A stretch of DNA of 31,552 nucleotides from Candidatus Woesearchaeota archaeon (GTDB taxonomy: Archaea; Nanobdellota; Nanobdellia; Woesearchaeales; JAGVYF01). Numbering within the stretch: the stretch's first letter is position 1; each line of letters opens with the position of its first letter. Of the stretch, positions 1 through 17,570 are shown piece by piece. Both the position numbers and the translations under genes were made by a program. A model generated the notes under the pieces. It searched no databases, had not been told where the DNA came from, and was given only the letters and a program-made list of their open reading frames with translations. The stretch is taken from contig JACQSS010000011.1 in assembly GCA_016211195.1 (NCBI GenBank), positions 1 through 31,552 on the forward strand, written 5' to 3'.

Positions 1-241
1 ACGATGGCCATCAATACTGTGAGCATCAACTTGTTACTCAATCAAGCAAAAAGGAATTGCAAGAGGGATTTTTGCCAACACCGTGTGAATTAAAAAATCC
101 CAACCGCAGCAAGCTGCGGGGATTTTTTAAGCGTCAAAATGAGTTATTGATTGCCGCAGCAAGCTGCGGAGTATGGACCCATTTTGACCAATCAAATGCG
201 AACCGATGGCCACAGAACGATAGCGAGGAAGCTTTTCAACG
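1..241 (+). repeat. MITE-like repeat element, copy A. The outer end is cut by the window edge, and it carries a 50-nt internal duplication at 120-169.
   Basis: 1-119 is identical by eye to the reverse complement of 5587-5705. 170-241 matches rc(5515-5586) with 3-4 mismatches. The palindrome CCGCAGCAAGCTGCGG is present twice (104-119 and 154-169). Confidence 0.85.
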
Positions 242-256
242 ATTGCGCACGCAATT

Positions 257-264
257 TTTATATA
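257..264 (+). promoter_or_regulatory. TATA-box-like element (TTTATATA) upstream of the 189-aa ORF
   Basis: The AT-rich octamer ends 23 nt before ATG 287. The same spacing recurs at several other genes in the window, which suggests a leaderless transcript. Confidence 0.45.
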
Positions 265-286
265 ATCTGTTCATTTTGATTTTGGC

Positions 287-856
287 ATGAAAAGGGTGAT
301 GGTACTCATTTTTCTCCTGTTCAGTTTACCTGTAACTGCCACCACCTTTATCCATCAGTCCTTGGACGAGCTTGATCAGCAAGCGGATTACGTCATCATG
401 GGTACTGTGCTTGAACATCGTGCATTCAAGGAAAAGGCGTCTATTGTGACGGAGACAACCATTGCAGTCGATGAAACGCTCCGCGGACCATCCCAGCCCT
501 TAATTATCACAGTGAAGGAGTTAGGTGGCATGGTTGATGACGTCCTGATGGTCGTGCCGGGCAGCCCCCAGTTTGATGACGGTGAGCGTATTGCGCTTTT
601 TTTCAAGGAGGACAGGAAATCAAGGATGCAGAGTGCTCTGACAAAATGGGGTGGATTGCAGGGCCATACAGTCGGCATGGGGCAGGGAAAGTTCCGTATC
701 CTGCGTAACGCAGACGGTGTTGATATCCTCCGAAGCGACCTGCACGGTGCTCATCTGCTTGTCGAGTTGCCTATCGAGTCCATTACTTTGGACGCATTTC
801 GTGCCCGTTATAGCTGGTGGGCGCGCTTCACGGCATGGTTGAGGGGCTTCCTGTGA
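287..856 (+). CDS. Secreted protein of unknown function (189 aa)
   Basis: Clean ORF with N-terminal signal-peptide-like segment MKRVMVLIFLLFSLPVTATT. No family motif recognised. Its stop TGA (854-856) overlaps GTG 853 of the downstream giant ORF. Confidence 0.7.
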   Translation: MKRVMVLIFLLFSLPVTATTFIHQSLDELDQQADYVIMGTVLEHRAFKEKASIVTETTIAVDETLRGPSQPLIITVKELGGMVDDVLMVVPGSPQFDDGERIALFFKEDRKSRMQSALTKWGGLQGHTVGMGQGKFRILRNADGVDILRSDLHGAHLLVELPIESITLDAFRARYSWWARFTAWLRGFL

Positions 857-3800
857 AACAGATCATTTTTCTTACTCTGCTTCTTCTAATGGCTGTGCCA
901 TCCTATGGCTATGTCCGGGCAACATTTGACCTCAGCGGTACAGTCATCCCCACCTTCTGGCGGTCTGCAGACATCCCGGTGCAGTGGACGACGTACCTCA
1001 ACGGTTCAGCAGATGTACCATTTAGTGCAATGATGCGGGCATTGAATAATAGCTTCGCAGTCTGGGAAAATCTCAGCTATGCCAATATCTCAACCTCCTA
1101 TCAAGGAAATACAACCAGCACTAATGTTGGCAACGATGCAGTGAACCTCATCGCTTTTGATGAAGATGGATCCTTCCTGTCACAAGGAGCATCAACGCTT
1201 GCCACAACACAATTCTTTGTCTCTGTCTCAACCGGACGTTTGCTCGATGCAGACATCATCTTCAATGGGAAATCATTTACATTTGCGACAGGCGGAGCAG
1301 ATTATGACATTGAATCCATTGCAATGCATGAGATTGGTCATTTCTTTGGACTTGACCATGCAGTCATCGGCTCAGAAGTTTCTACAGATAAACGGCCAAC
1401 CATGACTCCATTCTATATCGGTATCAATGGCAGGACCCTCGAGCAGGATGACCGGGCCGGGTTGGGTGCTACCTATCCCAGCGCCACCTTCTTCAATGTG
1501 ACAGGCAATGTCAGCGGCAATGTCCGTAATGGCACTCAGGAGATCTTCGGTGCCCAAATAGCAGCATTGAATGCGACGACTGGTGTGCCGGCAGTGGCCG
1601 TGCTGACTGGGTATCGCACTGGCTCTGGTGCAACCGGGCAGGGTGATTATCTCATGCTCGGACTTGAGCCCGGTAATTACACCATCAAAGCGACGCCCAT
1701 GGATGGCTCCAATGGTATCACCTCAAGCAACTTCAATGGGATTTTTTCCGATACCTTTGTCACATCATTCCGGACGCAGTATCATCCCAATGTCTTTAAC
1801 CAGTCACAGGCGCGCAATGTTACTATTGCACCAAATTCATTGACCCTTTCTTCGTTTGTTGGCACGCTGTATAATGTGAATATCTCAGCATCGGCTGACC
1901 AGACCATTTTCAATGGGACGAATGCAACATATGCTGTGCTGGTAGGCAACACCGGGAATGACAGGGATACGCTGACCCTTGCGCTTGCTGCCGATGGCAC
2001 TAATGCGTCATTGAATCAAAGCGCGTTTGCATCAGTGCCAGAAGGACAGGTACGTACTGCCTTGGTGACAGTCTCTGCCAGCGCGCCTGGCACTTATACA
2101 GTCCGTGTGAACGTCACATCACAGGGCAATGCGTCAGCGACAGCAGCAATCAACGTCACCACGACCGTACTGGAAACAGTGGCAGCTACAGCCATTTCGC
2201 CGGCATCGTCTGCTCTGGTCACGTCGCCAGTCTCATTTGTCTGTAATGCGACCGGGGCTTCACTCCAGAGCTTGACATTGTTTACGAACCAGAGCGGCTT
2301 TACAGGCGCCAGTACCCAGAATGTCAGCGGCACACGGAATCAAAGCACCTTCAATGTCTCACTCACGGATTCATCATATATCTGGACCTGCCTCGCCAAT
2401 GACACTATGGGAAATGCAGCATTTGCTGCTAACAGGACAGTAACTGTGGACAGTACTGCCCCGCTACTCTCATTAAATGTCAATGCGACCCGTCTTGAGA
2501 TGAATCAGGAATTCCTGCTCATCTCATGGGCGAGTCAGGATGCTCATTTGGGTTCTCCATTCGTTAATGTCTCTTACCCGAACGGTACATTATTTAATCG
2601 GACAGAGAATGCCAGTGGTGCCCTTGCAGTCTCTCCTGGACAATTGGGTACCTACACCATTGACTTGGTGGCCAATGATACGGTAGGTAACAGAAATGCA
2701 ACCCGTACAACCTTCACTGTTGTTGATACATCTGCACCTCTCGTGACGCTCCTGGCGCCAGTGAACGGTTCGGTGACGGGGGCAAATACAACGACTTTCT
2801 CCTGCAATGCGACCGATGTCACCGGGCTTGCTACACTGGCACTGTTCCACAATGGGCAAGGTACTTTTGCGCAGAACGAGTCAGTGTCCGTAACAGGAGC
2901 GCGGAACAATGTTACTGTCACTATTGGCGTTCCTGAAGCACAGCTTCTCTGGAACTGCAAGGCAACGGACATTAATGGAAATGCTTCCTTTGCTTCAGCA
3001 AACTTCTCTCTTATCACCGACCATAGTGCGCCGCGTGTCCATTCCATTGTTCTGAATGATGACTATGTTAGTCCAAATGGCACCATTGTTATGGTCGTCA
3101 ATGCAACAGATACATTGACAGACATTGCAAATGTGACTGCCAATGGGAGCCTGCTCCAAGCAAGCGGGGCTATTTTCAACAGGACTTTCAATGGATCATC
3201 CCAGGCCGGCCGTCATGTGGTCGCGGTGCTTGCAACAGATGAAGTAGGTAATAGTGTCTCTAATGTCACGACGTATGTCGTCGATGCAATATCTCCAGCC
3301 ATTTCGATCTATCTTCCTCCAAGAACTTTCTTTAGTCAGGATGGAAATGTGACACTACTCTGGCAGGTGACTGATGATAATATCAGTTCAACAAATATCA
3401 CTGTAGACACCACAACACAAGTTGGTGTCGTGAATAAGACACTGTCGGCACATAATTTTTCACAGGTCTTTTCTGATCTCAGGTCTGGCTCTCATGCAGT
3501 CATCATAGCTGCTGGTGACAATGCATCACGATCGACCATTCTCCGGTATAACTTCACACTGTCGCGGCCAGAGAACGTGACAGACCTCATCAATCGATTG
3601 CGGACAGCAGGTGGCTTCCAGAATATTGTCTACAGGCAACCGAATGGGAGCATCCTCTCCGGAAACATTCTTCTCAACCAGACACTCGTAAAAGATTTCA
3701 TCACGAATGCAAGCCTGGCCAATATAACAATCAACATAACTGCTTTCGGTGAGCATTTCGACGAAAGCAAGGCATCATTGATACGCCTGCAGTTGAACCG

Positions 3801-5499
3801 GACAGGTGTGTTTGGCTTGGCAGCAGGCCTCCGTCTTAGCGGACGGCCACCGAGTCAGTTCATCCTTTTCCAGAACATGAGCCAATACATTCCAGATAAC
3901 AATTATTCATTTCAGAACGGGACGAAGACATTTGCAACCATCAATTTCAATGGAGAGCTTGGTCGGCTTGTTCCCTTTTATGTCGTCGATGATGATGGTG
4001 CTGATGTCCGGCTGTTGGGTCAGTGCACGAATAACACAGCACCCACCACAGAGCCGTCATTGAGTACAATGTGCTACACGAACAGCAGTACTGCTGTGAC
4101 GCTTTACGTGCCGCATCTGTCCGGCGGCGGTCTTGATGATCCGGCAAATGCACCCACTATCAACATAACATCCCCCCAGGATCGTAGTAATGATACTGCT
4201 TTCACTGCTACGGGGCAGGTCCTTGACCTGAATCTTGGCAGTTGCACGTATAATCTTACGAATACAACGAGCACTCTCGTCTCCCCAACATCATTCAGCC
4301 CGTCGCTCGTGGGTGTAAACACCTCGAATTATACATTTTCTATAGACAATGCAGGTTTCACTGGTCTGGCTAATGGGAGCAGGTATAATCTGACCGTGAG
4401 TTGTTCTTCCACAGATGGAAACACAACCACTGTTGTCTCCTCATTTCAGGTGAATGACATTATCCCACCCCGTACCACAGCAATCACCACCAGCGGTGCA
4501 ACATCGGTAACTTCTTCAGGAACTCTTTCTGCATTGTTTACAACGCATGAATATGCGACGTGCGGGTACAACAGCTCTGTCCCAACGGCGGTCCTGACCT
4601 CATTTTCCCAAGCAAATACGAACCTCTCCAGCAGCAGTGCAGGAACAATACATACGTACTCAACAACGTACACTGCAGACGGGACAGTGACTGTCCCGGC
4701 TGTTATATGTATTGACGTCAACGGTAACAGTCAGTCACGGGCCAATGACAGCTTTGGCGTGGCCGTGAATGTTCAGGAGCCAAGTGCTTCGTCAAGTAGT
4801 GGTGGTGGAGGCGGCGGCAAGGCAACGCCAAAGACAACAGGCCCCATCAAAATTGTCAAAAAAATGGCTCATATCCAGCAAGGGCAAGCAGTTACAGTCA
4901 GCTTCATTGCAAAGGAAATCGCTCTGACAAAAATAGAGTTTATTGCTTCAGAAGCAATCTCAAACCTTGAGTTGTCTGTCAGCACAGCAGCTAAGCCAGT
5001 AACCATTCCAGAATTCCCGGGTCTTGTGTATCAATACATCACTATCACTTCTGCTCCTGAAGGAAAAGTGAAAAATGCCGCACTTGATTTCCGGCTTGCA
5101 AAAGAGTGGGTCGATGCAAATAAGTTGGACGATAAGACGATTGTCTTGTATCTGTTTGATGGTCAATGGCAACCATTACCGACGGTGAGTACTGGATCCA
5201 GCGATGTGCAGGTAACCTTCCGTGCGCAGACTCCGCATCTGAGCTGGTTTGCGATTGCTGGTCCACAGGAAGAAGAAGTTCCTGTAGAAGTGTCCACCAA
5301 GGAGCAGTCAGAGGAAACACAACTTGAGCCACCTCAACAGGAAGCAGTGCAGCAGCCAGTGAATGTGAGCACCTCCGGAGAAGTACAAGAGGTTTCACTA
5401 ATCGAAGGGCAGTCATGGGTGTGGTGGATCAGCGGGTTCTTTATACTGGTCCTGTTTGGCGCCTTCCTTGCATGGTGGCACTTTCGGAATCCGGAATGA
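835..5499 (+). CDS. Giant surface protein with an N-terminal matrixin/metzincin Zn-protease domain, Ig-like/CARDB-like repeats, a PGF-pre-PGF-like domain and a C-terminal TM anchor
   Basis: HEIGHFFGLDH (HExxHxxGxxH) with a downstream Met-turn candidate RPTMTP. Signal peptide KQIIFLTLLLLMAVPSYG. Carboxypeptidase-regulatory-like segment (GNVRNG...LEPGNYTIKATP). Recurrent domain boundaries VDSTAPLLSL / VDTSAPLVTL / TDHSAPRVHS / VDAISPAISI / VNDIIPPRTT. PGF-pre-PGF-like block (PGLVYQYITITS...LSWFAIAG), an acidic linker, then TM helix WVWWISGFFILVLFGAFLAWW. The start is uncertain: ATG 835, or GTG 853 in a GTGA overlap with the upstream stop. Confidence 0.9.
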   Translation: MVEGLPVKQIIFLTLLLLMAVPSYGYVRATFDLSGTVIPTFWRSADIPVQWTTYLNGSADVPFSAMMRALNNSFAVWENLSYANISTSYQGNTTSTNVGNDAVNLIAFDEDGSFLSQGASTLATTQFFVSVSTGRLLDADIIFNGKSFTFATGGADYDIESIAMHEIGHFFGLDHAVIGSEVSTDKRPTMTPFYIGINGRTLEQDDRAGLGATYPSATFFNVTGNVSGNVRNGTQEIFGAQIAALNATTGVPAVAVLTGYRTGSGATGQGDYLMLGLEPGNYTIKATPMDGSNGITSSNFNGIFSDTFVTSFRTQYHPNVFNQSQARNVTIAPNSLTLSSFVGTLYNVNISASADQTIFNGTNATYAVLVGNTGNDRDTLTLALAADGTNASLNQSAFASVPEGQVRTALVTVSASAPGTYTVRVNVTSQGNASATAAINVTTTVLETVAATAISPASSALVTSPVSFVCNATGASLQSLTLFTNQSGFTGASTQNVSGTRNQSTFNVSLTDSSYIWTCLANDTMGNAAFAANRTVTVDSTAPLLSLNVNATRLEMNQEFLLISWASQDAHLGSPFVNVSYPNGTLFNRTENASGALAVSPGQLGTYTIDLVANDTVGNRNATRTTFTVVDTSAPLVTLLAPVNGSVTGANTTTFSCNATDVTGLATLALFHNGQGTFAQNESVSVTGARNNVTVTIGVPEAQLLWNCKATDINGNASFASANFSLITDHSAPRVHSIVLNDDYVSPNGTIVMVVNATDTLTDIANVTANGSLLQASGAIFNRTFNGSSQAGRHVVAVLATDEVGNSVSNVTTYVVDAISPAISIYLPPRTFFSQDGNVTLLWQVTDDNISSTNITVDTTTQVGVVNKTLSAHNFSQVFSDLRSGSHAVIIAAGDNASRSTILRYNFTLSRPENVTDLINRLRTAGGFQNIVYRQPNGSILSGNILLNQTLVKDFITNASLANITINITAFGEHFDESKASLIRLQLNRTGVFGLAAGLRLSGRPPSQFILFQNMSQYIPDNNYSFQNGTKTFATINFNGELGRLVPFYVVDDDGADVRLLGQCTNNTAPTTEPSLSTMCYTNSSTAVTLYVPHLSGGGLDDPANAPTINITSPQDRSNDTAFTATGQVLDLNLGSCTYNLTNTTSTLVSPTSFSPSLVGVNTSNYTFSIDNAGFTGLANGSRYNLTVSCSSTDGNTTTVVSSFQVNDIIPPRTTAITTSGATSVTSSGTLSALFTTHEYATCGYNSSVPTAVLTSFSQANTNLSSSSAGTIHTYSTTYTADGTVTVPAVICIDVNGNSQSRANDSFGVAVNVQEPSASSSSGGGGGGKATPKTTGPIKIVKKMAHIQQGQAVTVSFIAKEIALTKIEFIASEAISNLELSVSTAAKPVTIPEFPGLVYQYITITSAPEGKVKNAALDFRLAKEWVDANKLDDKTIVLYLFDGQWQPLPTVSTGSSDVQVTFRAQTPHLSWFAIAGPQEEEVPVEVSTKEQSEETQLEPPQQEAVQQPVNVSTSGEVQEVSLIEGQSWVWWISGFFILVLFGAFLAWWHFRNPE

Positions 5500-5512
5500 C
5501 TATTCTTGCGGT

Positions 5513-5721
5513 CCCATTGAAAAGTTTCCTCGCTATCGCTCCGTGGCCATCGGTTCGCATTTGATTGGTCAAAATGGGTCCATACTCCGCAGCTTGCTGC
5601 GGTTGGGATTTTTTAATTCACACGGTGTTGGCAAAAATCCCTCTTGCAATTCCTTTTTGCTTGATTGAGTAACAAGTTGATGCTCACAGTATTGATGGCC
5701 ATCGTGAACTTTTCAATATGG
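5513..5721 (-). repeat. MITE-like repeat element, copy B. It is complete at ~209 bp and inverted relative to copy A.
   Basis: Reverse complement matches 1-119 and 170-241. Perfect 11-bp terminal inverted repeats ATTGAAAAGTT (5516-5526) and AACTTTTCAAT (5707-5717). No transposase ORF inside. Confidence 0.85.
5587..5614 (+). terminator. Hairpin plus T-tract downstream of the giant gene, located inside repeat copy B
   Basis: Palindrome CCGCAGCTTGCTGCGG (7-bp stem, 5587-5602) followed by TTGGGATTTTTT (T6 at 5609-5614), about 90 nt after the stop at 5499. Confidence 0.5.
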
Positions 5722-5737
5722 CCGAGTAACAGTAACA

Positions 5738-5745
5738 TTTATAAA
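5738..5745 (+). promoter_or_regulatory. TATA-box-like element (TTTATAAA) upstream of the aglB operon
   Basis: Ends 23 nt before ATG 5768. Confidence 0.45.
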
Positions 5746-5767
5746 AAAAGTGCAATCTGGCTGAGAC

Positions 5768-6319
5768 ATGAGACTGAGATTTCGCAAGGAAACCGCCTCA
5801 TTGATACTCCTTGCCATTATGGTCCTAAGCGGCCTAGGCGTTTACGTCGGAAATCAGGACGAAACAGCAACAACATATAATGGGTATCAATTTTTCCCCC
5901 AGCCGAGTGGTTGGCTTGTGCGAATAAACAATGCCCAGTACCAGTTTCAGTACTTGCCGACGGACACTAATTTCAGCATCGGTACAATCCCCCTCGGAGA
6001 AAAAGTGTATATCGCATATGACCCACTTGAAAAGAATATTACTACCGAGAACATTATTGCACAGACTAGTGCATTATTCCGGCAATTTGGTGTATGGCCA
6101 GTGGTGGCATGTGTGAGAGAAGAAGGTTGTCCGGCAGATTTACCCCTCGTTGCATGCGAGACAGCACCAGCACCCGTCTTCTATTTCCGCAGTGCCGAAG
6201 AAAGAGGAGTTGTTCATCAGGGGCAATGCATCATTATCCAGGCACAGACGAGCATAGACCTGCATAGAGCAGTCGAACGAATGGCATATCAATTGCTGGG
6301 GGTCATGAAGAATGAGTGA
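5768..6319 (+). CDS. Membrane-anchored extracytoplasmic protein of unknown function (183 aa)
   Basis: N-terminal TM segment ASLILLAIMVLSGLGVYV followed by a soluble domain containing cysteines. Overlaps the aglB start by 8 nt, so it is probably co-transcribed. Confidence 0.65.
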   Translation: MRLRFRKETASLILLAIMVLSGLGVYVGNQDETATTYNGYQFFPQPSGWLVRINNAQYQFQYLPTDTNFSIGTIPLGEKVYIAYDPLEKNITTENIIAQTSALFRQFGVWPVVACVREEGCPADLPLVACETAPAPVFYFRSAEERGVVHQGQCIIIQAQTSIDLHRAVERMAYQLLGVMKNE

Positions 6320-9029
6320 CGATGACCTCAGACGTGAGCAGTTAGTCACCTTCCTGCGAACCCACAAGAAGATCATAACATGGCTCTTACTGGCATTCAT
6401 TATCTACACTGCGACATCGGTGCGTTTCTCCAATTTGGGTTACCTTAAGGATGTCACATCCGGAAATTACGTCGCTGCAGACCTTGATGCATTCCTCTTC
6501 TACCGGTATGCGGAATATATCCTTGAGCATGGAACAGCCATGGAGCATGACAGCATGCGGTATTACCCATACGGTGAACCATGGGACTTGTTACATGGAC
6601 ATCAGGGATTCCCGCATTTTCTGGTCATGTGGTATAAGTTCCTGCACTTTTTTAACGGTGCAGTCACGTTTGATTATGCCTATATCATCTATCCGACTGC
6701 CATCCTTGCATTGACACTACTTGTTTTTTTCCTGCTGGTACAAACTGTCTTTGGTAGTTTTGCCGGGTTGCTTGCAACCGCAGCATTAGGATATAGTCCC
6801 GCCTATCTTTTTCGTACCATGACTGGTGTTGCTGACCACGATGCAGTGGGTATGCTTATGCTTACCCTTTCTCTTTTTCTCTATATGAAAGCCCTGCAAC
6901 AGGAAACCGTGAAAATGAGCGTATTCTATGGGTTTTTGACCGGCCTCTCTACCATCACGATGGTCTTTGTCTGGCTGGGTGCAGGGAATTTCCTTTACCT
7001 TATTCTTGGAGGCACCACACTTGTCCAGATATTCCTTAACTTGTTCCACGAGAAAGATTATTTTGCGTATCTCACATGGTTCATCACGTTTCTCAGTGGC
7101 CTGGAATATCTTGAGCTGCTATCTATTGGAGACCTGCTTGGCTCGACGACAACAGAGATGGTCGTCCTTGCATTGGGGACAGGAACTATCTATTACCTCC
7201 TTTTTGAAAAAGACATCTTTGGCGCAGCACCTAGGCTGAAAAAGCTATTGCCGAGTGGCATCACGTGTGTGCTCTGCACTGTCTTCATAGGCCTTCTTCT
7301 CATCTCTGCTGTACACGGTCCCACGTTCCTTTTCCAAAAAGCAGGCAAGCTCTATGGTGACATGGTCGCTCCGTGGGCAAAGGATCGGTGGCAACTGACT
7401 GTCGCTGAGCAGCACCAGCCATATCTTGTTGATTGGTACGGTCAGATGGGCAAGTATTATGTCCTTTTCTTCCTGCTCGGGTCAGTCTATCTTTTCTACG
7501 AGCTGATGAAACCACTGGGTCACCATCTGAAGAAGGTCAATATCCCTTATATTTCGATGACCAGCCTTGTTTTGTTCTATGCGGCATTCATTTTCAGTTT
7601 CACATTCAGCAGATATTCACAGGATTCAACATTGAACGGGACGAACTCCTTATCTATCTGGCTCTATCTCGGCAGCCTTGTTGTGTTTATTGTGGGATTC
7701 TTTATCCTCTATACGTATCTCTTTTATCAGAACAGGGACGATTTTTATAACGCAGTATCACAATTGAACAAGACATACATCCTCATTTTTGTGTGGTTCT
7801 TTTTCATGACCGTTGGCGCGCGTGGGGCCATACGGCTCGTTTTCACGTATACACCGGTCACCACACTCCTATTCGGGTATTTTGTCATGCGACTTTTTGA
7901 GCTCGCCAATGGATTGCAGGATAAACTCTATCGTGTTCCTGCGCTCCTCCTGCTCGGACTGCTTGTCCTGTCCCCAATTTCTCTGGGGAGTACACTGGGC
8001 AAGGGAATACTTCCACAGTATTATGACGGCATTAAGGCACAGGCGCAATATACAGGAACACCATACAATCAGCAATGGCAGCTTGGCATGGATTGGGTGC
8101 GCCGCAATACGCCACAGGATGCTGTCTTTGCGCATTGGTGGGATTATGGTTACTGGGTCCAGACTGGTGGACAACGGGCGACAGTAACTGATGGGGGGAA
8201 TGAACACGCCAACTGGAACTATCAGATCGGCCGCCACGTCCTTACTGGACAGAACCAGACAGAGGCACTAGAAGTACTTGCTGCTCATAATGCAACACAT
8301 CTCCTGATTATTGCTGACGAGATTGGAAAATACACAGCTTTCTCCTCAATTGGTTCTGATGCGAACTATGACCGGTATAGTTGGGTCAATGTGTTCACGC
8401 AGAACCTTCAACTGAGCCAGCAGACACGTAATGGGACCACTTTCCTGTATCAAGGGCAATATCCGCTTGATGACGATTTTATGTACAAGGGTGAGTTTTT
8501 TCCGAAGATGGCTTCGGGCATTGGCGGTTTCCTCGTCCCATTCAATGAAGTCACTGTCCAGGAAGGGAACACCACAGCGAAACGCACAGTGGTATCACAA
8601 CCAAAAGCTGCTTTGTTTAGCAGTAACGGGCAACGGACTGATGTGCCGCTTGAATGCTTATACATTGACGGACAGTTTATCACCTTCCCGGAACCTGGTC
8701 TGAAAGGGTGCCTGAAGATTATTCCAACCATCAATGGGGACAAACAAAATATCATCGGGGCAGGTCTTTATGTCTCCGAAGAAGGGGTCAAGGCGATGTG
8801 GACAAACCTGTATCTTTTCGACGGGAAAAATCCTCGTTTCCCGGTTCCGGCATTTGAGCTTGCTTATGATGACAGTGATAAGATGCCTTTCCTTGTCTAC
8901 AATGGCCGGCTGATTGGACCGTTGCGCATCTGGAAAGTCAATTATCCAAAAGAGTTCTCATTGTCAGAAGAGAAGGAGAACCTGTATCTCGGTTTCGCGC
9001 ACGAAAATCCGGAAGCGACGAAGATATAG
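6312..9029 (+). CDS. aglB: Archaeal oligosaccharyltransferase AglB (STT3 family)
   Basis: Long polytopic N-terminal half. Canonical WWDYGYW motif (AHWWDYGYWVQTGG). Acidic DLD in the first external loop region (AADLDAF). Soluble C-terminal domain. 905 aa. Confidence 0.92.
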   Translation: MSDDDLRREQLVTFLRTHKKIITWLLLAFIIYTATSVRFSNLGYLKDVTSGNYVAADLDAFLFYRYAEYILEHGTAMEHDSMRYYPYGEPWDLLHGHQGFPHFLVMWYKFLHFFNGAVTFDYAYIIYPTAILALTLLVFFLLVQTVFGSFAGLLATAALGYSPAYLFRTMTGVADHDAVGMLMLTLSLFLYMKALQQETVKMSVFYGFLTGLSTITMVFVWLGAGNFLYLILGGTTLVQIFLNLFHEKDYFAYLTWFITFLSGLEYLELLSIGDLLGSTTTEMVVLALGTGTIYYLLFEKDIFGAAPRLKKLLPSGITCVLCTVFIGLLLISAVHGPTFLFQKAGKLYGDMVAPWAKDRWQLTVAEQHQPYLVDWYGQMGKYYVLFFLLGSVYLFYELMKPLGHHLKKVNIPYISMTSLVLFYAAFIFSFTFSRYSQDSTLNGTNSLSIWLYLGSLVVFIVGFFILYTYLFYQNRDDFYNAVSQLNKTYILIFVWFFFMTVGARGAIRLVFTYTPVTTLLFGYFVMRLFELANGLQDKLYRVPALLLLGLLVLSPISLGSTLGKGILPQYYDGIKAQAQYTGTPYNQQWQLGMDWVRRNTPQDAVFAHWWDYGYWVQTGGQRATVTDGGNEHANWNYQIGRHVLTGQNQTEALEVLAAHNATHLLIIADEIGKYTAFSSIGSDANYDRYSWVNVFTQNLQLSQQTRNGTTFLYQGQYPLDDDFMYKGEFFPKMASGIGGFLVPFNEVTVQEGNTTAKRTVVSQPKAALFSSNGQRTDVPLECLYIDGQFITFPEPGLKGCLKIIPTINGDKQNIIGAGLYVSEEGVKAMWTNLYLFDGKNPRFPVPAFELAYDDSDKMPFLVYNGRLIGPLRIWKVNYPKEFSLSEEKENLYLGFAHENPEATKI

Positions 9030-9072
9030 TCATTTCATGAAGTGATAGAGGTTAAACAGTAAACCGGTTATC

Positions 9073-10203
9073 TTATCGAATCAGCTTGTTATCATCATAG
9101 ATCTTCAACAGTTGTGGAATCTTTTTGTCCCATGCATATTCATGCTTGATGAATTCGCGGGCCTCTTCCCCTAAAGTAATAAGCTGTTGTTTATTAGACA
9201 AGAGGTCTTGCAGCGTGCGAGCAAATTCATGCTTGTCAAAGACATCAATTGCCAGTTTCTGATGATGAACACGTTCTCTGAAGGCCGTATTATCTCGTGA
9301 AACCAAAGCGGGTGTTCCTGCTGCTTCAGCTTCCAGAATCGCATATCCAAATTCATCATATAAGGACGGTGCTACCAGCAAATGGCTCTGTGCAATATGA
9401 AAAAGCGTTTCCTCCCGAGGCAGCAGCCCCAACAGCTTAATTTTTGGTTTGAGGGTGGGGTACTTATTCAGGACCACCGCAAAGTAAGGGGGAATTTCGC
9501 CCATGATCTCAAGAGTAAAGTTCTGCTTGACATTCTCCAGTGCATTGAAAAGTAAATAGAGTCCTTTTCTTTTTGTCCAGATATGGTGCCGTCCAACGAA
9601 AGTCATGGTCAACTCTTCCTTCTTTTTGACGCGTCCTTTTGGAATTGTTATACCGGGAGGGAAATAGAGCGCCCTATATCCTTTTTTCACGAGGGTCTCG
9701 GTAACAAAATTGGTAACGCCTAAGACACATCTTACTTTCTGCAAAGCAAAATAGTCTTTGATGCTCATCTCAATTTCCCTTACAATCCGGTAAGGTAATT
9801 GAAAAAAAGGTGCATATCGTCTTGCCAGCACCATGCATTCTTTCACTCCCTTGGGAAAATCCCAAGCGACCCCAATCACTGGGGCTCTTATCGTGTGGTA
9901 CGGAAGGTGATCAGCAGTATGAACGATATCTGGGTCGATTCTATTGATAAGTGCAGAGACCTCTTTGCCCACAAAAAAAGGATCAATCGACGAAAAAGGA
10001 GGCAGCTGCTTTATCTTATCACCCAAAAATGAAAACGTTTTCGCTGGTGACGGATAAAAGCAAAGCATGTTCTTTTCAGCAACATCTTTTGCTTCACCGA
10101 TGACGATTATCTCATTATTCGTTTCCTTTAACGCGTGCGCCAACTCAATAATGTATGTTCCTATACCCGATCCTTCTGTATACGGATACAAACAGATTTT
10201 CAT
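9073..10203 (-). CDS. Glycosyltransferase, GT4 family (GT-B fold)
   Basis: C-terminal GT4 signature EFGYAILEAEAAGTPALVS (E-x7-E region) and a typical N-terminal MKICL...G.G.Y start. The size (376 aa) fits. Confidence 0.8.
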   Translation of the reverse strand: MKICLYPYTEGSGIGTYIIELAHALKETNNEIIVIGEAKDVAEKNMLCFYPSPAKTFSFLGDKIKQLPPFSSIDPFFVGKEVSALINRIDPDIVHTADHLPYHTIRAPVIGVAWDFPKGVKECMVLARRYAPFFQLPYRIVREIEMSIKDYFALQKVRCVLGVTNFVTETLVKKGYRALYFPPGITIPKGRVKKKEELTMTFVGRHHIWTKRKGLYLLFNALENVKQNFTLEIMGEIPPYFAVVLNKYPTLKPKIKLLGLLPREETLFHIAQSHLLVAPSLYDEFGYAILEAEAAGTPALVSRDNTAFRERVHHQKLAIDVFDKHEFARTLQDLLSNKQQLITLGEEAREFIKHEYAWDKKIPQLLKIYDDNKLIR

Positions 10204-10242
10204 GGTGCTGAAGAAGAATTCTGAATGCTTCTTAATGCTTTC

Positions 10243-11199
10243 TCATTTAGACCAGTCAAGAGCAATTTCTTTCCCCGTCTCTAAACTCTCCTGAGCAGAC
10301 TGCAAAATCCTAATGATGGTATATCCATTACTCGCGTCAGTCACAGGTTTTTCCCGTGTTCGTACACAATCAAAGAAGTAAGAACACTGGAGCTCCAATG
10401 GGCTCGTCTCATTCAAAAAAGAACGCTGGGATGTGGTACCATTTTGAAGGTTATGAATGCTTAATTCTTTGGAAATGTCATCAAAGAGAACTGTCTTTTT
10501 GCTTCCTGAGATGATGACCTTTCTTGTTTTCTGGGCACCAGTCCAGCCGTTGTAGATAGATCCCTTGATACCACTTGGATAAGTGACCACAATATCAACA
10601 GAATTCGCAGCCATGTGATTCAGTGGGTCTCTTTGTTGGACAAAGACCCTGGTAGGGTTTTCTCCAGTCAAATAATTCATCAGTGAGAAATCATGGGGGG
10701 CATAATCCCACATGACATTAATGTCATTTCTACCCGGTCCGGGGCTGCTTCGGTCAGAAGAAAAATCAATCAAAGTTCCTAATTCCCCTTCAGTAATCAT
10801 CTTTCTTACCACACGTGTTACCGGGTGATAAAGATAAATGTGCCCGACCATCAAAATCCGAGATGATTTTTCTGAGAGAGTAACTATTTTTAGGGCATCC
10901 CCTGAAGAAAGTGTCATCGGCTTTTCGACTAAGATATCCTTTTCAGCTGATAAAGCAGACGTCGCGAGGTCATAATGTGTCCCTGGTGGAGTAGCAATGA
11001 TGAGGGCGTCAATGTGCTTGTCATGCAACAAAGAATGATAATCATGAGTAAATTGGCACCCGGCCGGCAGGTTTTCAATCCTTCGGTGAGGACTACAGAC
11101 CCAACGCAGTTGAACATCGTCCATCTTCATGATGGTTCTGAGATAATTCAAACCCCATGGGCCAACGCCGATGAGACCAATCTGCAGGAGATGATTCAT
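10243..11199 (-). CDS. Gfo/Idh/MocA-family NAD(P)-dependent oxidoreductase, a likely sugar-nucleotide dehydrogenase
   Basis: N-terminal Rossmann motif IGLIGVGPWGLNYL, an EKP motif (LVEKPMTLS), and size typical of the family. Overlaps the upstream gene by 4 nt. Confidence 0.75.
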   Translation of the reverse strand: MNHLLQIGLIGVGPWGLNYLRTIMKMDDVQLRWVCSPHRRIENLPAGCQFTHDYHSLLHDKHIDALIIATPPGTHYDLATSALSAEKDILVEKPMTLSSGDALKIVTLSEKSSRILMVGHIYLYHPVTRVVRKMITEGELGTLIDFSSDRSSPGPGRNDINVMWDYAPHDFSLMNYLTGENPTRVFVQQRDPLNHMAANSVDIVVTYPSGIKGSIYNGWTGAQKTRKVIISGSKKTVLFDDISKELSIHNLQNGTTSQRSFLNETSPLELQCSYFFDCVRTREKPVTDASNGYTIIRILQSAQESLETGKEIALDWSK

Positions 11200-12293
11200 A
11201 TAAATTTGTCTTCCTTTATCTTCTCGACTAATCGTTGAGCCATGAGTGGAGCAGAAATAAATTTACCCTCAAAAAGGGAATAAATCCCGGGAGCATCCTG
11301 ATGAGCCTTGATTCGTGTATGGCGGGCGTCACCAACAACACTGACGGGAATTGGTCGAGTGCCATACAACGACTGCACATATTCCAGATCTCCAAAAAAT
11401 GGGAAGTACTCTTTGCCATGCTCTACCATTTTATCCCAATTGGTCTGACTCCGCTTTGTGTCATCCATGAAATAGCCATCCTTCCTATCCAATACAGAAT
11501 GGACAACATCGTAGACCACATATAACCCTGTCTCTTGTTCACCCATTATCGGCAATAAACTGATGAATGGGCCATCCATGACGGTCAACGCCGGTATTTT
11601 GTCCTTGCTTCGCGCAATGACGACTTCAGTATGCTGAAGGAAATAGCGCGTCATATCTCTTTCTAACCCCAAAATCGTTAAGATGTTATTTGTACATGCA
11701 TAGGTTGCATTGACGATCACATCTGCCGGATGCTGTCTGTTTTTTCCTGAGCGGCCATCAGAAGAGATGATGCAATATCTGTTTGCCTTCTCAAACCCGA
11801 CGACTCTTGAACCAGTGTGAACATCAATCCCTAATTCAGATACTTCTCTCTCTAACAATCTTTTCAGAATCTTTGGATTGTAAACTGGTTCTGGAACTCT
11901 GAAAAAACCGTCTATGTTTTCTTTATTCCAGAAAGTTTTCGCCGGTTCTTTTTCATCATACGGGAGCCCAACATTTTCACAAAATTTCTTATATTGGGGA
12001 TAAGACGTTTTGGACCCTTCCTTTGCCAAGAGATAATAGTTCTCTTCCGGATAAAACAAGGCTTCCGGATATCTTCCCTTAAAAAATTCTAACCCTTCAA
12101 AGCATTCAGCGACGGTTTCAGGTGACCGAGGATAATGATACCCGAGATGCGCCCGGTATTGTGTCGCTATCGATGTTCCCATCATGACCCCAGTCTCTTT
12201 TTCCAACAGAGAGACCTGAACGCCTTCCCGAGCAAGCGCAAGAGAAGAGAGAAGTCCATGCACCCCTCCGCCAATGACCACTGCTTTTACCAT
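11196..12293 (-). CDS. FAD-dependent oxidoreductase (DAO-like)
   Basis: N-terminal dinucleotide-binding motif VVIGGGVHGLLSSLALAREGVQVSLLEKE. Confidence 0.7.
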   Translation of the reverse strand: MVKAVVIGGGVHGLLSSLALAREGVQVSLLEKETGVMMGTSIATQYRAHLGYHYPRSPETVAECFEGLEFFKGRYPEALFYPEENYYLLAKEGSKTSYPQYKKFCENVGLPYDEKEPAKTFWNKENIDGFFRVPEPVYNPKILKRLLEREVSELGIDVHTGSRVVGFEKANRYCIISSDGRSGKNRQHPADVIVNATYACTNNILTILGLERDMTRYFLQHTEVVIARSKDKIPALTVMDGPFISLLPIMGEQETGLYVVYDVVHSVLDRKDGYFMDDTKRSQTNWDKMVEHGKEYFPFFGDLEYVQSLYGTRPIPVSVVGDARHTRIKAHQDAPGIYSLFEGKFISAPLMAQRLVEKIKEDKFI

Positions 12294-12370
12294 TTTCTCA
12301 CGGAGTTCATTTTTTCCACCATTTCAAAGGAAAACAGTCAGTCTTTTAAAAAAGTTATGCAAGAATGGGA

Positions 12371-12423
12371 CCATTGAAAAGCTCTCAATGGCCATCAACC
12401 CTGTGAGCATCGACTTGTTACTC
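12371..12423 (+). repeat. Partial, diverged copy C of the MITE-like element terminus
   Basis: CCATTGAAAAGCTCTCAATGGCCATCAACCCTGTGAGCATCGACTTGTTACTC aligns to rc(5666-5721) with about 6 mismatches and a 2-nt indel. It overlaps the stop codon of the pyrH-like gene. Confidence 0.75.
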
Positions 12424-13080
12424 CAGCACGGTGCCGATGAATGACTCCCTACTAATAATATGGGCCACATTCTCCAGATTAGCTCCATTGGCGAGAATCA
12501 CCCGCAAGCCACTTTTTTGTGCTTCCATGGCTGCGATAGGGTCAAACGGTGCATGCAACCCCGGATTCCACGTCGGCCCAATCATGGCAAGATAATCTTT
12601 CCAACTGAGCACAGGAAGCGGACGTGCATCCGGATGCAGACGTGGGTCTTTGTCATAGACATAATCCTGATTGAACAAGTTAATCAGCAATGTTGCCTTA
12701 TACGTCTGTGCAAGGATCACGGCATCATAGTCTGTGCTGCTGCCCGGCAAGTGCCCTGCTGCAATGATTACCTTGTTTCCTGTCGCTCGTTTATGCGGGT
12801 CATATTGTACTTCGGTAGAACTGCCCAAAGCTGCGCGGAGCAGTTCAGCATTAACCCGTGTGATCATGATTCCTATCCAGTCCAAGCTTTCCTGCTCAGT
12901 CACGCCCAGTGCACGCGCAGTATCCTGGTAGCGTCTGCACACAGCACCCCCACCCGTCACAAGAATAAACCTTGTGTCCCTCATCGATTGAATGAAGTCC
13001 CTAAATCGACTAATGAATTCTGTGTCAATGCTCTCGGGGACAAGCAGGGAACCACCCACAGAGATGACAATCGTCTCCAT
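12418..13080 (-). CDS. pyrH: Archaeal-type uridylate (UMP) kinase
   Basis: ISVGGSLL, LVTGGGAVCRRY, GIMITRVNAELL, PGSSTDYDA and VYDKDPR motifs are collinear with archaeal PyrH. The start is moved to internal ATG 13080 (METIVISVGG), because the longer ORF would run into the upstream gene. Confidence 0.8.
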   Translation of the reverse strand: METIVISVGGSLLVPESIDTEFISRFRDFIQSMRDTRFILVTGGGAVCRRYQDTARALGVTEQESLDWIGIMITRVNAELLRAALGSSTEVQYDPHKRATGNKVIIAAGHLPGSSTDYDAVILAQTYKATLLINLFNQDYVYDKDPRLHPDARPLPVLSWKDYLAMIGPTWNPGLHAPFDPIAAMEAQKSGLRVILANGANLENVAHIISRESFIGTVLE

Positions 13081-13112
13081 GTCCCAACGCAAGGCATCTT
13101 GCTTCTTATATC

Positions 13113-13460
13113 TTACCGTGCCAACCCAATGAGTGAGACGCCGATGATGATACTGCATATCCCCGCAGTTTTCAACAGGTTGATGTCTTCCCTGAGTTGG
13201 TATTTTGACAAGAGAGTAATCCAGATATATGCTGTCGACGTTAGGGGATAGATCACTGATAGGTCACCAAACCGGAGAGCCACGAGGCCCAATGCCATGC
13301 CGACACCATAGCATCCAACCCCGATGACAAGATGTTTGGAGGCCGAACTTTTCAAGGACCATGATAGTTGTGCAGCGGCTTTTTTCAGATAAAGCGCTCC
13401 AAATGATCCGGTAACACATGAAATCAACACAAGTGCCATTGCACCAACTGTTGTTGCCAT
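13113..13460 (-). CDS. Half-size EamA/SMR-like membrane protein (4 TM), ArnE/ArnF-like, subunit 2
   Basis: Four hydrophobic helices in ~115 aa. The motif FGDLSVIYPLTSTAYIW parallels the paralog upstream. The start is placed at ATG 13460, which shares one nucleotide with the upstream stop (TAATG). Confidence 0.65.
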   Translation of the reverse strand: MATTVGAMALVLISCVTGSFGALYLKKAAAQLSWSLKSSASKHLVIGVGCYGVGMALGLVALRFGDLSVIYPLTSTAYIWITLLSKYQLREDINLLKTAGICSIIIGVSLIGLAR

Positions 13461-14931: not shown

Positions 14932-16026
14932 TTAGCTCCATTTCAGGAACATTGCTGCCCAGAGCATGCCCTCATCCCGCACATAGAAGAGGCGCTTATA
15001 CGGTGTTCCATCCGGGTTGAAGACTTCAAGGACATTCTTATGTTTCTCGATGATTTTGGCATGGTCCCGGACATACGGTTGTGCAAGTTTCTTGTCAAGC
15101 ATCATAACTACATCAATGAAGCAGAAGCCGAGGTGCGTCCAGATAGAGTTGCCTTCATAATTTGATGCAAAGAATGAGGGAAGAAAAAGCTCCTGTTCCC
15201 TGATACGCTGTTGTGTGTATTTGGCTGGGAACGGCTTATCCAACCCCTGTGCCTTCATCTCGCCCACTGCAGAAGCAAGCATTTCCTTGTCAGTGAAAAT
15301 GCCGCACCAAAATGGAAAAATATTTGCATCACTTGCGACATGATATTTTCCTGACAGGTCATCAAGGAAATATGTGCCTGTCCAGAACGTTTCTTTAATG
15401 ATGCGTGTAAAATCATAACCTGTAAACGGATTTGTGAGCTTCAGCGTCTTAGCATCACATGCAGCCATGGCTAGCATACAGTTATCGTAGCATGAGGATT
15501 GCCGTGCATAATGGTCCTTTATTGATGAGAAATGTTTATCTTTCCGGACCAGGCCGGTTTTCATGTCAAACATTTCCTGATAGCAGACGCGAAGCTGCGC
15601 CTCAAGGAAGTCCTTATACTTCTGTACAAGCTCTTGTGCATCCGCTTGGACTAAACTATGCAGCAGAAATGGCAGTGAATCAATGGCCATAACCGGAAAA
15701 TCAACGCACTTCCCCTTTTTTGTGATGAACGTGGTTATCCTATTCGCACGCTGATAGTGCTCAAGCGCAAATGAGAGTGAGGAAACAACCTGTTCGCGGT
15801 AGCCCAATGCAAGCAGTGCATCGACGCAAAGCCCAAAGTCACGCATCCAGAACTGGGGAAAATTGCCCGTGCTGACTTGATAATAGGTCCCATTCCAGCA
15901 TTCCTGCACAATCTGCTTGCATATCTGCGGTGCATCGCCTATGTACGTCTTTGGTTTCCGGAAACGTGCAGCCAGTGCCCTTGCTCCGAAGCGGACACCT
16001 TCCTTGATATGAGAGGGACGAAGCAT
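14932..16026 (-). CDS. Hypothetical protein, possibly an (alpha/alpha)6-barrel glycoside-hydrolase-like enzyme
   Basis: A 364-aa ORF on the strand opposite a much weaker ORF. The segment FPQFWMRDFGLCVDALLALGYREQV resembles the W-x-RD helix motif of GDE_C/GH15/GH63-type barrels. The functional call is weak. Confidence 0.6.
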   Translation of the reverse strand: MLRPSHIKEGVRFGARALAARFRKPKTYIGDAPQICKQIVQECWNGTYYQVSTGNFPQFWMRDFGLCVDALLALGYREQVVSSLSFALEHYQRANRITTFITKKGKCVDFPVMAIDSLPFLLHSLVQADAQELVQKYKDFLEAQLRVCYQEMFDMKTGLVRKDKHFSSIKDHYARQSSCYDNCMLAMAACDAKTLKLTNPFTGYDFTRIIKETFWTGTYFLDDLSGKYHVASDANIFPFWCGIFTDKEMLASAVGEMKAQGLDKPFPAKYTQQRIREQELFLPSFFASNYEGNSIWTHLGFCFIDVVMMLDKKLAQPYVRDHAKIIEKHKNVLEVFNPDGTPYKRLFYVRDEGMLWAAMFLKWS

Positions 16027-16046
16027 GGCTGAGTGGAGGAAATGCG

Positions 16047-16056
16047 TTTATTTAAA
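16047..16056 (-). promoter_or_regulatory. AT-rich TATA-like element TTTATTTAAA in a divergent intergenic region
   Basis: Lies 21 nt from ATG 16026 of the minus-strand gene. Confidence 0.35.
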
Positions 16057-16075
16057 GGTGCTGGTGGCCGACGGC

Positions 16076-16083
16076 TATAAATA
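16076..16083 (+). promoter_or_regulatory. TATA-box-like element TATAAATA upstream of the C45-like hydrolase
   Basis: Ends 23 nt before ATG 16106. Confidence 0.45.
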
Positions 16084-16105
16084 CCTGGCTCTTATTATAG
16101 ATGCA

Positions 16106-17056
16106 ATGCTTGATATTCTTCTCAATGGAAAGCCACGGGAAATGGGTCGGCGGCATGGTGAATCATTGCGTAGTGCTATTCGCCAGACAATTGATCTGTA
16201 TCAGGAGCTCTGGAAGATTCCTGCGGGCCAACTACTGGATCGTGTCAATGGCTATGCAACTTCCCTGTCGGCATTGGTTCCCCATATCCTTGATGAAATG
16301 CAGGGTATCGCTGATGGTGCAGCCCTCTCTCTTGAGCAGGTTATTGCACTCAATGCACGGACTGAACTATTGCCGCGCTCTGTGCTTGAGTGCACCTCAA
16401 TTGGGCTTGGTGGAGAGCTAGGTCAGAACTGGGACTGGTTGAACACCTTCAAAGGGCTGCCGTGCATGGTCGAGTTACAGCCGCATGGCGCACCAAGAAT
16501 AAGGGCATTTATTGAGCCGGGCATGGTAGGCAAAATTGGTCTCAATGATGCAGGAGTCGCTGTCTGCCTGAATTATCTGCAGACCGATCAGATAAAATCA
16601 GAAGGTTTCCCTATCCATGTGCTCCTGCGACGCATTTTGGGATGTACCTCATGTGAAGAGGCCATCTCAATGCTCACGTTCTCACCACGCGCTGCATCAG
16701 CTCATTACCTGCTGGCGGATGACTATTTGATTATTAGTGCGGAAGCGACTCCTGAAGCGGTCTACTTTTATTCCGGTCAACAGGTTCTGACGCACACGAA
16801 CTCCTACAGGTCCCGCAATGAGTCATGTCCTCGTCAGACACTGGTGGATAGCTATCTCGGGAAACAGCGGCAAAATGTGTCGAGCGACACTATCAAACGT
16901 GCCTTGGCACTGCCGGGTGTTCAGTTTCCACTGGCAAAACCGGGAGAGATTGAAACACTGCATACCATCCTGCTGCAACCGCGCCTGAAGCAGATGCTGG
17001 TTTCTGACGGTGCAGCTGGGCATGCGTTTACCACGTATTCGTTCAGAAACCTTTAA
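16106..17056 (+). CDS. Peptidase C45 / acyl-CoA:6-aminopenicillanic-acid acyltransferase-like NTN hydrolase
   Basis: Start MLDILLNGKPREMGRRHG, candidate nucleophile LECTSIGL, and NWDW and THTNSY motifs typical of the family. The start is chosen at 16106 from the TATA spacing. The ORF is open from 16025. Confidence 0.7.
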   Translation: MLDILLNGKPREMGRRHGESLRSAIRQTIDLYQELWKIPAGQLLDRVNGYATSLSALVPHILDEMQGIADGAALSLEQVIALNARTELLPRSVLECTSIGLGGELGQNWDWLNTFKGLPCMVELQPHGAPRIRAFIEPGMVGKIGLNDAGVAVCLNYLQTDQIKSEGFPIHVLLRRILGCTSCEEAISMLTFSPRAASAHYLLADDYLIISAEATPEAVYFYSGQQVLTHTNSYRSRNESCPRQTLVDSYLGKQRQNVSSDTIKRALALPGVQFPLAKPGEIETLHTILLQPRLKQMLVSDGAAGHAFTTYSFRNL

Positions 17057-17570
17057 ATTGCCGATGCCGTTCGTCCCGCATAATGGACGAAACGACGAAT
17101 CATGTGTGCCAGAGTTGCATCAAATTCAAGTTCTTCGGCAAAAGCTGCTGGTATTTCTGGGAAGGCAAGAAAGTCTGCACTATGAAGGAAGAGGAATAGA
17201 TAATGTGCATAGACGAGATTGTTGTGCCGGAATCGAAGGAGATGCAAGTGCACCCGCAATCAGGCTTGAGCAGCTTTTGCGTTGGCGCAGCCGGTGGTTT
17301 TGTCACGCTACTTTTACGAACCAATGTCTTATTCTATTTTGAATTCTTAACGCCTAATCAGAAGAAACTAGCGCGTGCACATTATGCATGGGAACTGAAT
17401 GGAGAGAAGCTGGACAGTGCACGCAGTGGTGATCAGTGTGGAGCAACGTGCGCGTTTTATACTGAATGTGCATTAGCCGTCGCTGCAGGAGGCTTTGGCG
17501 GTCTGGCGGGCATTGGATTGTACTTTGGTGCAAAAGCAGTGACGAACACGCTTGGGTATCTCTATTTTCG

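Follow-up and report, generated by a model that had tools for sequence, protein, structure and literature searches.

The window analysed here, a 31,552-nt stretch of contig JACQSS010000011.1 from a Candidatus Woesearchaeota archaeon, begins inside one of two near-identical inverted repeats that bracket a small secreted-protein gene and the surface-metzincin gene coupled to it. In the order now present, these two genes (both +) are followed by the right-hand repeat copy (R), p183(+), AglB(+), GT4(−), GFO(−), DAO(−), a truncated third copy of the repeat and pyrH(−) (Table 1). It is highly probable that the repeats are copies of a miniature inverted-repeat transposable element (MITE), a short non-autonomous DNA transposon, in this DPANN archaeon, that two insertions of it, E1 and E2, recombined and inverted the segment to the right of R, and that the bracketed metzincin operon is itself a resident of the locus.

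As an earlier, sequence-only reading of this DNA had described, inverted arms are found by repeat search at 1-119 and 5587-5705 (119 nt, 100% complementary) and at 154-239 and 5517-5602 (86 nt, 97%; alignment and direct reading agree). No further repeat of at least 30 nt is present within the 31.5-kb window, and the inverted repeat is therefore far beyond chance. R carries perfect 11-bp terminal inverted repeats (TIRs), ATTGAAAAGTT and AACTTTTCAAT, at 5516-5526 and 5707-5717. These TIRs had been recognised before, but the limits given to the element (5513-5721) do not hold: the TIRs bound a core of 202 nt at 5516-5717, and with a 6-nt tip on either side the element measures 214 nt. It has no open reading frame (ORF) of its own, only short frames, in agreement with the earlier reading. 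Folded as either strand, the element forms a long terminal hairpin (z = −2.9 and −3.9), the terminal and subterminal regions are strongly self-complementary, and the element contains the palindrome GATGGCCATC.

The left-hand copy (L) has a core of 252 nt and an overall length of ~264 nt, of which the first 12 core nt lie off the window. Its 3′ TIR, AGCTTTTCAAC at 230-240, has two mismatches. The difference in length stems from a 50-nt segment private to L, and from the sequence R looks like a deletion form that would have lost this segment between two 16-nt direct repeats. Outside this indel, the two copies are identical over core positions 13-175 (163 nt) and differ at four sites, all within core 176-202. 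This clustering (0/163, then 4/27) is significant (Fisher p = 3e-4). At all four sites R agrees with a related copy in the genome of a relative, L003, which places the divergence in the 3′ end of L. That L and R are otherwise so alike reflects recent copying or gene conversion among copies. The mosaic structure of L, perfectly identical to R up to a point and decayed towards its 3′ end and tip, suggests that L underwent gene conversion with other copies, that it is another hybrid, or that the assembly collapsed where the contig ends.

The two-copy picture of the sequence-only reading is correct for the inverted pair but had overlooked the third, truncated copy, which sits between the DAO-type oxidoreductase gene and pyrH. 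Its core portion at 12373-12423 is identical to R at 45 of 51 positions (88%), with E = 1e-12 and 1e-7 in blastn and nhmmer searches. The similarity begins exactly at ATTGAAAAG, and since the same start is seen in independent contexts, the 5′ terminus of the element is a discrete boundary. The window thus contains two full copies and one truncated copy, and one more copy is present in L003.

The comparison with relatives drew on loci for which DNA was available: L001 (GCA_053532615.1), L003/L002 (GCA_023264635.1 and a Logan contig of the same organism), L005, L006 and L007 (GCA_053531795.1). The nearest homologues share 44-52% identity in the metzincin and 66-69% in AglB. In L003, a related copy was detected by nhmmer between pyrH and p187, with a core of 266 nt (9097-9362) and a full length of 278 nt. 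It reads AAACAATG-GGCGCC-(ATTGAAAAGG ... GACTTTTCAAT)-GGCGCC-AAACAATG, where the parentheses enclose the core. This copy has a perfect 15-bp TIR, GGCGCCATTGAAAAG, at both ends and a perfect 8-bp direct duplication, AAACAATG, on both sides. Relative to the window element, it is ~80% identical over the 5′ 95 nt and ~91% over the 3′ 45 nt, with a poorly conserved interior; such conserved ends around an apparently variable interior are the usual MITE pattern. Taken over the copies, the element is a non-coding core of 202-266 nt bounded by ATTGAAAAG(T/G/C)T ... A(A/G)CTTTTCAA(T/C), with tips beyond the core that are usually 6 nt long and GGNNCC-like (a GG tip at 5 of the 6 observed ends) and an 8-bp target-site duplication (TSD). 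The end sequence that a cognate autonomous insertion sequence (IS) would share is GGNNCCATTGAAAAG.

All three insertion points in the window have element-free counterparts in relatives, a check that the sequence-only reading had proposed, and the spacers there are too short to hold the element. No element was found by nhmmer in the metzincin|DAO spacer (95 nt) or the NMD3|small-gene spacer (42 nt) of L007, in the spacers 5′ of the small gene in L003, L006 and L001 (53-113 nt), or in the pyrH|radical-SAM and radical-SAM|p182 spacers of L005 (39 and 32 nt). Based on the L003 copy with its 8-bp duplication and on these empty sites, the element is mobile. MITEs are defined by TIRs, TSDs of 2-10 bp and the lack of a transposase (PMC11602168). 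The element has a length within 50-800 bp without a transposase gene, TIRs of at least 10-15 bp, a TSD and element-free orthologous sites. The earlier assignment to a MITE-type non-autonomous element is thus borne out by discrete ends in three window contexts, the duplication in L003 and the empty sites.

When the flanks of the window copies are parsed by the L003 anatomy (a 6-nt tip, then an 8-bp duplication), two different duplications emerge. The first, X, consists of GCAAGAAT and occurs together with the adjoining tip GGGACC at the 3′ end of R (5502-5515) and at the 5′ end of the third copy (12359-12372). The second, W, is found as GAGTAACA at the 5′ end of R (5724-5731) and as TGTTACTC at the end of pyrH (12416-12423). 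The last 8 nt of the third copy are this same TGTTACTC, which corresponds to core positions 44-51, to the target-site copy W and to the reverse complement of the pyrH end (GAG-TAA-CA). Elsewhere in the window this 8-mer occurs only inside the L and R cores, and the chance of one specified 8-mer match is 1.5e-5. Duplications of 2 bp or 6 bp were considered and rejected, as the 8-mers beyond the 6-nt tips match perfectly both in L003 and between the split window copies. The C-terminus of pyrH (...FIGTVLE, then stop) is intact and collinear with that of L003 (...FIGTVLQ, then stop). Because each of the two duplications is split between opposite copies, we infer that the 6.6 kb from 5718 to 12372 were inverted between two oppositely oriented copies. 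The sequence-only reading had proposed a recombination-prone cassette; the element is indeed recombinogenic, with split duplications and one inversion, but the inverted part is this neighbouring segment and not the bracketed gene pair.

Flipping the segment back yields gene orders that are seen in relatives. On one side it restores pyrH-p183-AglB, as in L003 and likewise in L005, where a radical-SAM gene lies between pyrH and p182; in L001, p182-AglB-GT4 is present and no pyrH is shown. On the other side it restores metzincin-DAO-GFO-glycosyltransferase, an order that was seen in L007 only after the prediction had been made. L007 reads NMD3, small gene, metzincin, DAO(+), GFO(+), glycosyltransferase(+), with 78% identity to the window in DAO and 63% in GFO, and the rebuilt metzincin|DAO spacer resembles that of L007 in its TATA box and 5′ leader. 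In L001, L003/L002 and L005, AglB is followed by a co-directional GT4, giving GT4(−), AglB(−), p18x(−) in the orientation of the window; in L001 and L003/L002 the small(+) and metzincin(+) genes are convergent to this block. On the other side of the block, L003 and L005 have pyrH(−), EamA and a PBP gene, and L003 also the 363-aa gene. L003 is collinear with the far right of the window too (MTS methyltransferase ... AAA ATPase, radical SAM).

The following sequence of events would account for this arrangement. Copy E1 would have entered the spacer from the metzincin stop to the DAO promoter and duplicated GCAAGAAT; copy E2, in the opposite orientation, would have entered at the pyrH stop codon before the p183-AglB promoter and duplicated GAGTAACA. 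For copy L, the insertion point would be ~10 nt before the TATA box that serves the small-protein/metzincin operon. Inverted recombination between E1 and E2 would then have flipped the p183-AglB-GT4-GFO-DAO segment (6.6 kb), making the present R a hybrid with the 5′ flank of E2 and the 3′ flank of E1. Finally, the reciprocal product would have been cut to 51 nt by a deletion between the core-internal TGTTACTC and the identical target copy at the pyrH stop. Two other routes to the inverted order were tried and discarded. Mis-assembly would require a collapsible repeat, and the third copy is truncated, 12% diverged and shares only short identical runs with R. An inversion of a single element by microhomology only predicts an R that lacks its 5′ 43 nt, and R is complete.

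Table 1 Features of the inverted-repeat locus. Positions are those of the 31,552-nt window.
Feature	Position	Strand	Remarks
L, left MITE copy	1-240	+	Core positions 13-202 plus 50-nt extra; first 12 core nt, ATTGAAAAGTTC, off-window
50-nt segment private to L	120-169	+	Ends in second copy of 16-mer hairpin CCGCAGCAAGCTGCGG (first copy 104-119)
L 3′ tip, GATTGC	241-246	+	Degenerate 6 nt
Candidate target-site copy for L, GCACGCAA	247-254	+	Next 8 nt; partner would lie off-window
TATA-like box, TTTTTATATAA	255-265	+	~25 nt before ATG at 287; putative promoter, inside bracketed segment
Small secreted protein, 189 aa	287-856	+	N-terminal signal peptide; no Pfam match
Surface metzincin, 1548 aa	853-5499	+	M10 matrixin domain, Ig-like repeats, many N-X-S/T sequons, PGF-pre-PGF domain, C-terminal transmembrane segment
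Target-site copy X, 8 bp, GCAAGAAT on element strand	5502-5509	−	Adjoins R 3′ end, 2 nt past metzincin stop
R, right MITE copy	5510-5723	−	3′ tip GGGACC at 5510-5515 (− strand), 5′ tip GGCCAT at 5718-5723
Target-site copy W, 8 bp, GAGTAACA	5724-5731	+	pyrH last codon, stop and CA; adjoins R 5′ end, followed by p183 promoter
Genes of the inverted segment and their promoters	5732-12358		
p183	5768-6319	+	
AglB/STT3	6312-9029	+	
GT4	9073-10203	−	
GFO/MocA oxidoreductase	10243-11199	−	
DAO-type FAD oxidoreductase	11196-12293	−	
Second X copy, GCAAGAAT	12359-12366	+	Adjoins third copy 5′ end
Third copy, truncated MITE	12367-12423	+	Tip GGGACC at 12367-12372; core positions 1-51 at 12373-12423
pyrH, archaeal UMP kinase	12418-13158	−	Stop codon inside 8-bp repeat W

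Several observations weigh against this account of the locus. The 6-nt tips are irregular: those of E1 read GGGACC at both ends, direct and not inverted, the 5′ tip of R is GGCCAT, and the 3′ tip of L is GATTGC. In the window, no copy is enclosed by an intact duplication; the TSD is rebuilt here from split copies and is seen directly only in L003. The first 119-163 nt of L could have been collapsed or borrowed in assembly. In addition, the inversion does not explain why the window GT4 lies tail-to-tail with AglB and ends a DAO-GFO-GT4 operon, which implies an earlier rearrangement or gene replacement around GT4. The window GT4 is 59-61% identical to the AglB-linked GT4 of L001, L003 and L005 and 40% identical to the third gene of L007, a GT4 paralogue (L007:7901-9040), and the 43-nt AglB|GT4 spacer holds no element remnant. 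Neither the exact 23-mer GAGGGATTTTTGCCAACACCGTG nor the degenerate 22-mer ATGGCCATCAANNCTGTGAGCATC has a match among GTDB species genomes and JGI metagenomes, collections without the source metagenome-assembled genome, and four patterns, two-ended TIR patterns among them, gave no match in IMG/VR. An autonomous partner or transposase was found neither among the window ORFs nor in the fetched relatives, where the sole transposase is an IS200/IS605 Y1 TnpA in L003. The IS200/IS605 family has neither TIRs nor TSDs.

The inverted order could also have arisen in one step, by intramolecular replicative ('copy-in') transposition of E1 into the pyrH stop, with an IS6-like transposase acting in trans. 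This route is possible, though doubtful. It leaves the same flank pattern as recombination between two insertions (X...W on one copy, W...X on the other), and the IS6 family combines 8-bp duplications, GG tips, abundance in archaea, MITE derivatives and replicative inversions and deletions (PMC7986276). The element tip GGGACCATTGAAAA matches 9 of 14 positions of the IS6/IS26 consensus GGTTCTGTTGCAAA, a consensus that is bacterial (PMC6807381). However, a replicative event should yield two products that start out the same, and here the third copy and R are unlike at 6 of 51 positions, with R equal to L over 163 nt; a later gene conversion of R by L would be needed. The conserved G7 and cTGTt of IS6 ends are replaced in the element by A7 and CCATT, and no IS6-like transposase was seen in the window or the fetched relatives. 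The sequence differences favour recombination of two older insertions over a replicative event. IS families other than IS6 also make 8-bp duplications.

A further explanation concerns only L, of which the left arm (at least the first 119-163 nt) might be an assembly artefact, extended by k-mers of R or of a collapsed multi-copy repeat, in which case the perfect identity would not be biological. The perfectly identical stretch abuts the window start, and the mismatches follow only behind it. The source contig (31,709 nt) exceeds the window by 157 nt, and the right window edge (ORF 31292-31552) is exactly the ATG of a minus-strand ORF; with a window that ends on a start codon and a contig only 157 nt longer, the missing bases may all lie to the right. 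The contig may then start inside L, and an assembly break at a repeat is a plausible origin of the window start. Even so, an artefact is unlikely. That an independent copy lies there is certain from the 50-nt segment, the four substitutions and the tip that only L possesses, and from its unique junction to the operon promoter. The main conclusions, on the MITE and the inversion, do not depend on L but draw on R, the third copy and L003.

The idea that L and R turn the small-protein/metzincin pair into a composite-transposon-like or invertible (phase-variable) unit, as first proposed for this DNA, is very improbable. In its favour are the 163 identical nt in inverted copies 5.3 kb apart, which are enough for homologous recombination, a nearby inversion that the family has already mediated, and a contig that may break inside L, as expected with both orientations or with many copies. 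Against the composite-transposon-like cassette stand five related contigs in which the pair lies in the same context without flanking elements (L001, L003/L002, L006, L007 and the ERZ27297570 contig with P0003); NMD3 precedes it in L001 and L007, and in L001, L003/L002 and L007 it is followed by glycosylation genes. The flanks of R also speak against it, as they pair with the third copy and the pyrH end and not with L. The invertible cassette fares no better, as the operon points the same way as in L003 when set against the conserved right flank (pyrH ... radical SAM), the promoters of both operons lie inside their own segments, and a domain scan of the ORFs found no transposase or recombinase gene in the 31.5 kb. 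The operon is thus a resident and vertically inherited unit in its ancestral orientation. L and R are then two independent insertions (R as a hybrid) that face each other by chance as a 5.5-kb inverted pair. Recombination between L and R could proceed via the 163 identical nt, with no sign of having occurred, and since the promoter lies inside the segment such a flip would be expression-neutral.

It is quite unlikely that the family is active now, with the L/R pair and its related copies giving a standing orientation polymorphism around the giant surface metzincin and the AglB N-glycosylation genes. If this were true, a MITE would be remodelling the surface and glycosylation loci of an episymbiont, by ongoing homologous exchange or by a one-step replicative inversion that an archaeal IS6-like transposase drives on the MITE, and the contig break in L would reflect this heterogeneity. 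Finally, it is hardly credible that the repeat is an immobile, conserved functional module of intergenic DNA which arose here by local duplication, such as a terminator working in both directions, a small RNA gene or a platform for regulator binding, since its hairpin with T-run, the palindrome, the stable fold and the related sequence 3′ of pyrH in both the window and L003 are outweighed by discrete ends with 8-bp direct duplications of unrelated sequence at different sites, independent pyrH-proximal copies, empty orthologous spacers in other relatives, the lack of an Rfam match, and ends that are conserved around an interior that is not.

The spacer 3′ of pyrH has been struck by the MITE family in two lineages (window 12294-12423; L003:9074-9444). 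The copies near pyrH in the window and in L003 face opposite ways and differ in their 8-bp duplications (GAGTAACA versus AAACAATG); they are therefore independent insertions, which makes this spacer a possible insertion hotspot. In the Logan contig of the L003 organism, the sequence breaks off 32 nt into the MITE copy (L002:9667-9698), which hints that the element is repeated in that genome as well.

Archaeal termination needs only oligo-T. On the + strand, R presents the hairpin CCGCAGCTTGCTGCGG and a T6 run (5609-5614) ~110 nt past the metzincin stop. The 50-nt segment of L contributes a T6 run at 123-128, and owing to these extra nt L carries a hairpin with T6 in both directions. These structures may act as terminators or insulators between operons that were made tandem by the insertions and the inversion. 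Terminator-bearing MITE-like repeats have been described as Correia elements in Neisseria and SPRITE in S. pneumoniae (PMC10969869). The element resembles these in that a GC hairpin in its interior has a T-run behind it and lies shortly after the end of a long operon, but it has no sequence relation to them.

Compared with prokaryotic MITEs in general, the element is typical in its size (200-280 bp), TIRs, TSD, non-coding and intergenic nature near promoters and stops, several copies within the window, conserved ends and use as a recombination substrate, whereas its 6-nt tips are irregular. It is a clean new MITE family of an ordinary class, matching nothing retrievable, a statement that does not extend to the published archaeal MITE catalogue. 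One Woesearchaeal genome was reported to be among the most MITE-dense of the archaea (PMC11602168); MITEs are described as recombination hotspots, and archaeal MITEs are known from Sulfolobus, Halobacterium and Haloquadratum (PMC10969869). MITE derivatives of the IS6/IS26 family include MITEBth2 and MITEHarch3 (PMC7986276, PMC6807381). The element shares with this family the 8-bp duplication, the GG tips, a ...TTG.AAA end stretch within the 9/14 match to GGTTCTGTTGCAAA, the occurrence in archaea and the split-duplication inversions. In contrast, it lacks the most conserved end positions, and no transposase of the family was found in the window or the fetched relatives. With the best-conserved positions, G7 and cTGTt, missing, an assignment to IS6 was not made. 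A derivation from IS200/IS605 as a palindrome-associated transposable element was rejected. Such elements have no TIRs, no target duplication, subterminal hairpins and insertion 3′ of a fixed tetra- or pentanucleotide; the element here has TIRs and 8-bp duplications, and its flanking 8-mers are unrelated.

Chromosomal inversions mediated by IS elements or repeats are recognised by exchanged TSDs in comparisons of bacterial and archaeal genomes. The present inversion resembles them in its two opposite copies, each with half of two duplications, and in the recovery of the ancestral order when the segment is flipped. It differs in that the substrate is a ~200-bp non-autonomous element and that one product was later truncated by an 8-bp direct-repeat deletion. 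To our knowledge, the transposable elements of DPANN archaea have barely been described. The locus provides a concrete MITE family defined by sequence, down to its ends and the 8-bp duplication that it makes, and a fully reconstructable example of a MITE reshuffling gene order in a small genome. What was reshuffled is the cluster of AglB glycosylation genes, next to a giant surface protease that has many potential glycosylation sites and a possible role in host contact. In annotation and binning, the repeats explain a likely contig break, and they caution that the local gene order around them can differ between close genomes. No new mechanism is revealed; this is a well-documented case of a known class and not a new kind of system.

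The element was also compared with wider collections. Rfam gave only sub-threshold noise at gathering and permissive thresholds, and a six-frame pseudo-protein of the element, meant to catch spurious ORFs over copies, had no match among 5.8 billion proteins. Against phage and plasmid collections, blastn returned only a 39-nt match of chance level to Synechocystis plasmids.

Among the genes around the element, the metzincin is identical (100%) to NCBI MBI4440744.1, a 'PGF-pre-PGF domain-containing protein [Candidatus Woesearchaeota archaeon]', and AglB has the locus tag HY639_01120. The archaeal character of the window is also seen in the archaeal-type UMP kinase, TrmB-like regulator, archaeal HemK-related methyltransferase, Kae1 and AglB/STT3 that it encodes. 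The metzincin GTG start at 853 overlaps the small-gene stop as GTGA, in keeping with the translational coupling noted earlier. Packed with N-X-S/T sequons, with a PGF-pre-PGF domain and a C-terminal anchor, and encoded beside the AglB oligosaccharyltransferase, the metzincin is a candidate for a glycosylated protease on the surface of a DPANN episymbiont. In all relatives found, the small secreted protein is conserved as its upstream partner. The 189-aa and 183-aa proteins were compared as possible paralogues, and this relationship was rejected. A second TATA-like box lies at ~5738-5750, ~25 nt before the p183 ATG at 5768; the spacing suggests that both element-flanked operons may make leaderless transcripts.

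In L003, two 100%-identical 187-nt direct repeats (19001-19187 and 20870-21056) surround a Bro-N gene and the IS200/IS605-type Y1 transposase gene, the first repeat overlapping the 3′ end of a DUF6915 gene. This stretch (L003:19001-21056) looks like a small integrated element adjoining the small-protein/metzincin operon of that relative. In the right part of the window, a block at 16025-20668 encodes a C45 acyltransferase, tRNA-Arg(CCT) (17576-17653), the TrmB-like regulator, an ATP-dependent DNA ligase and a 403-aa protein. The collinear region of L003, from the 363/364-aa gene to the MTS methyltransferase, lacks this block, which may be an insertion beside a tRNA gene or may have been lost from the relative. 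The HemK/MTS methyltransferase (20447-21949) probably starts later than its longest ORF (GTG at 20447), since this ORF overlaps the upstream minus-strand 403-aa ORF by ~220 nt and its Pfam/NCBIfam match starts only at residue 112.

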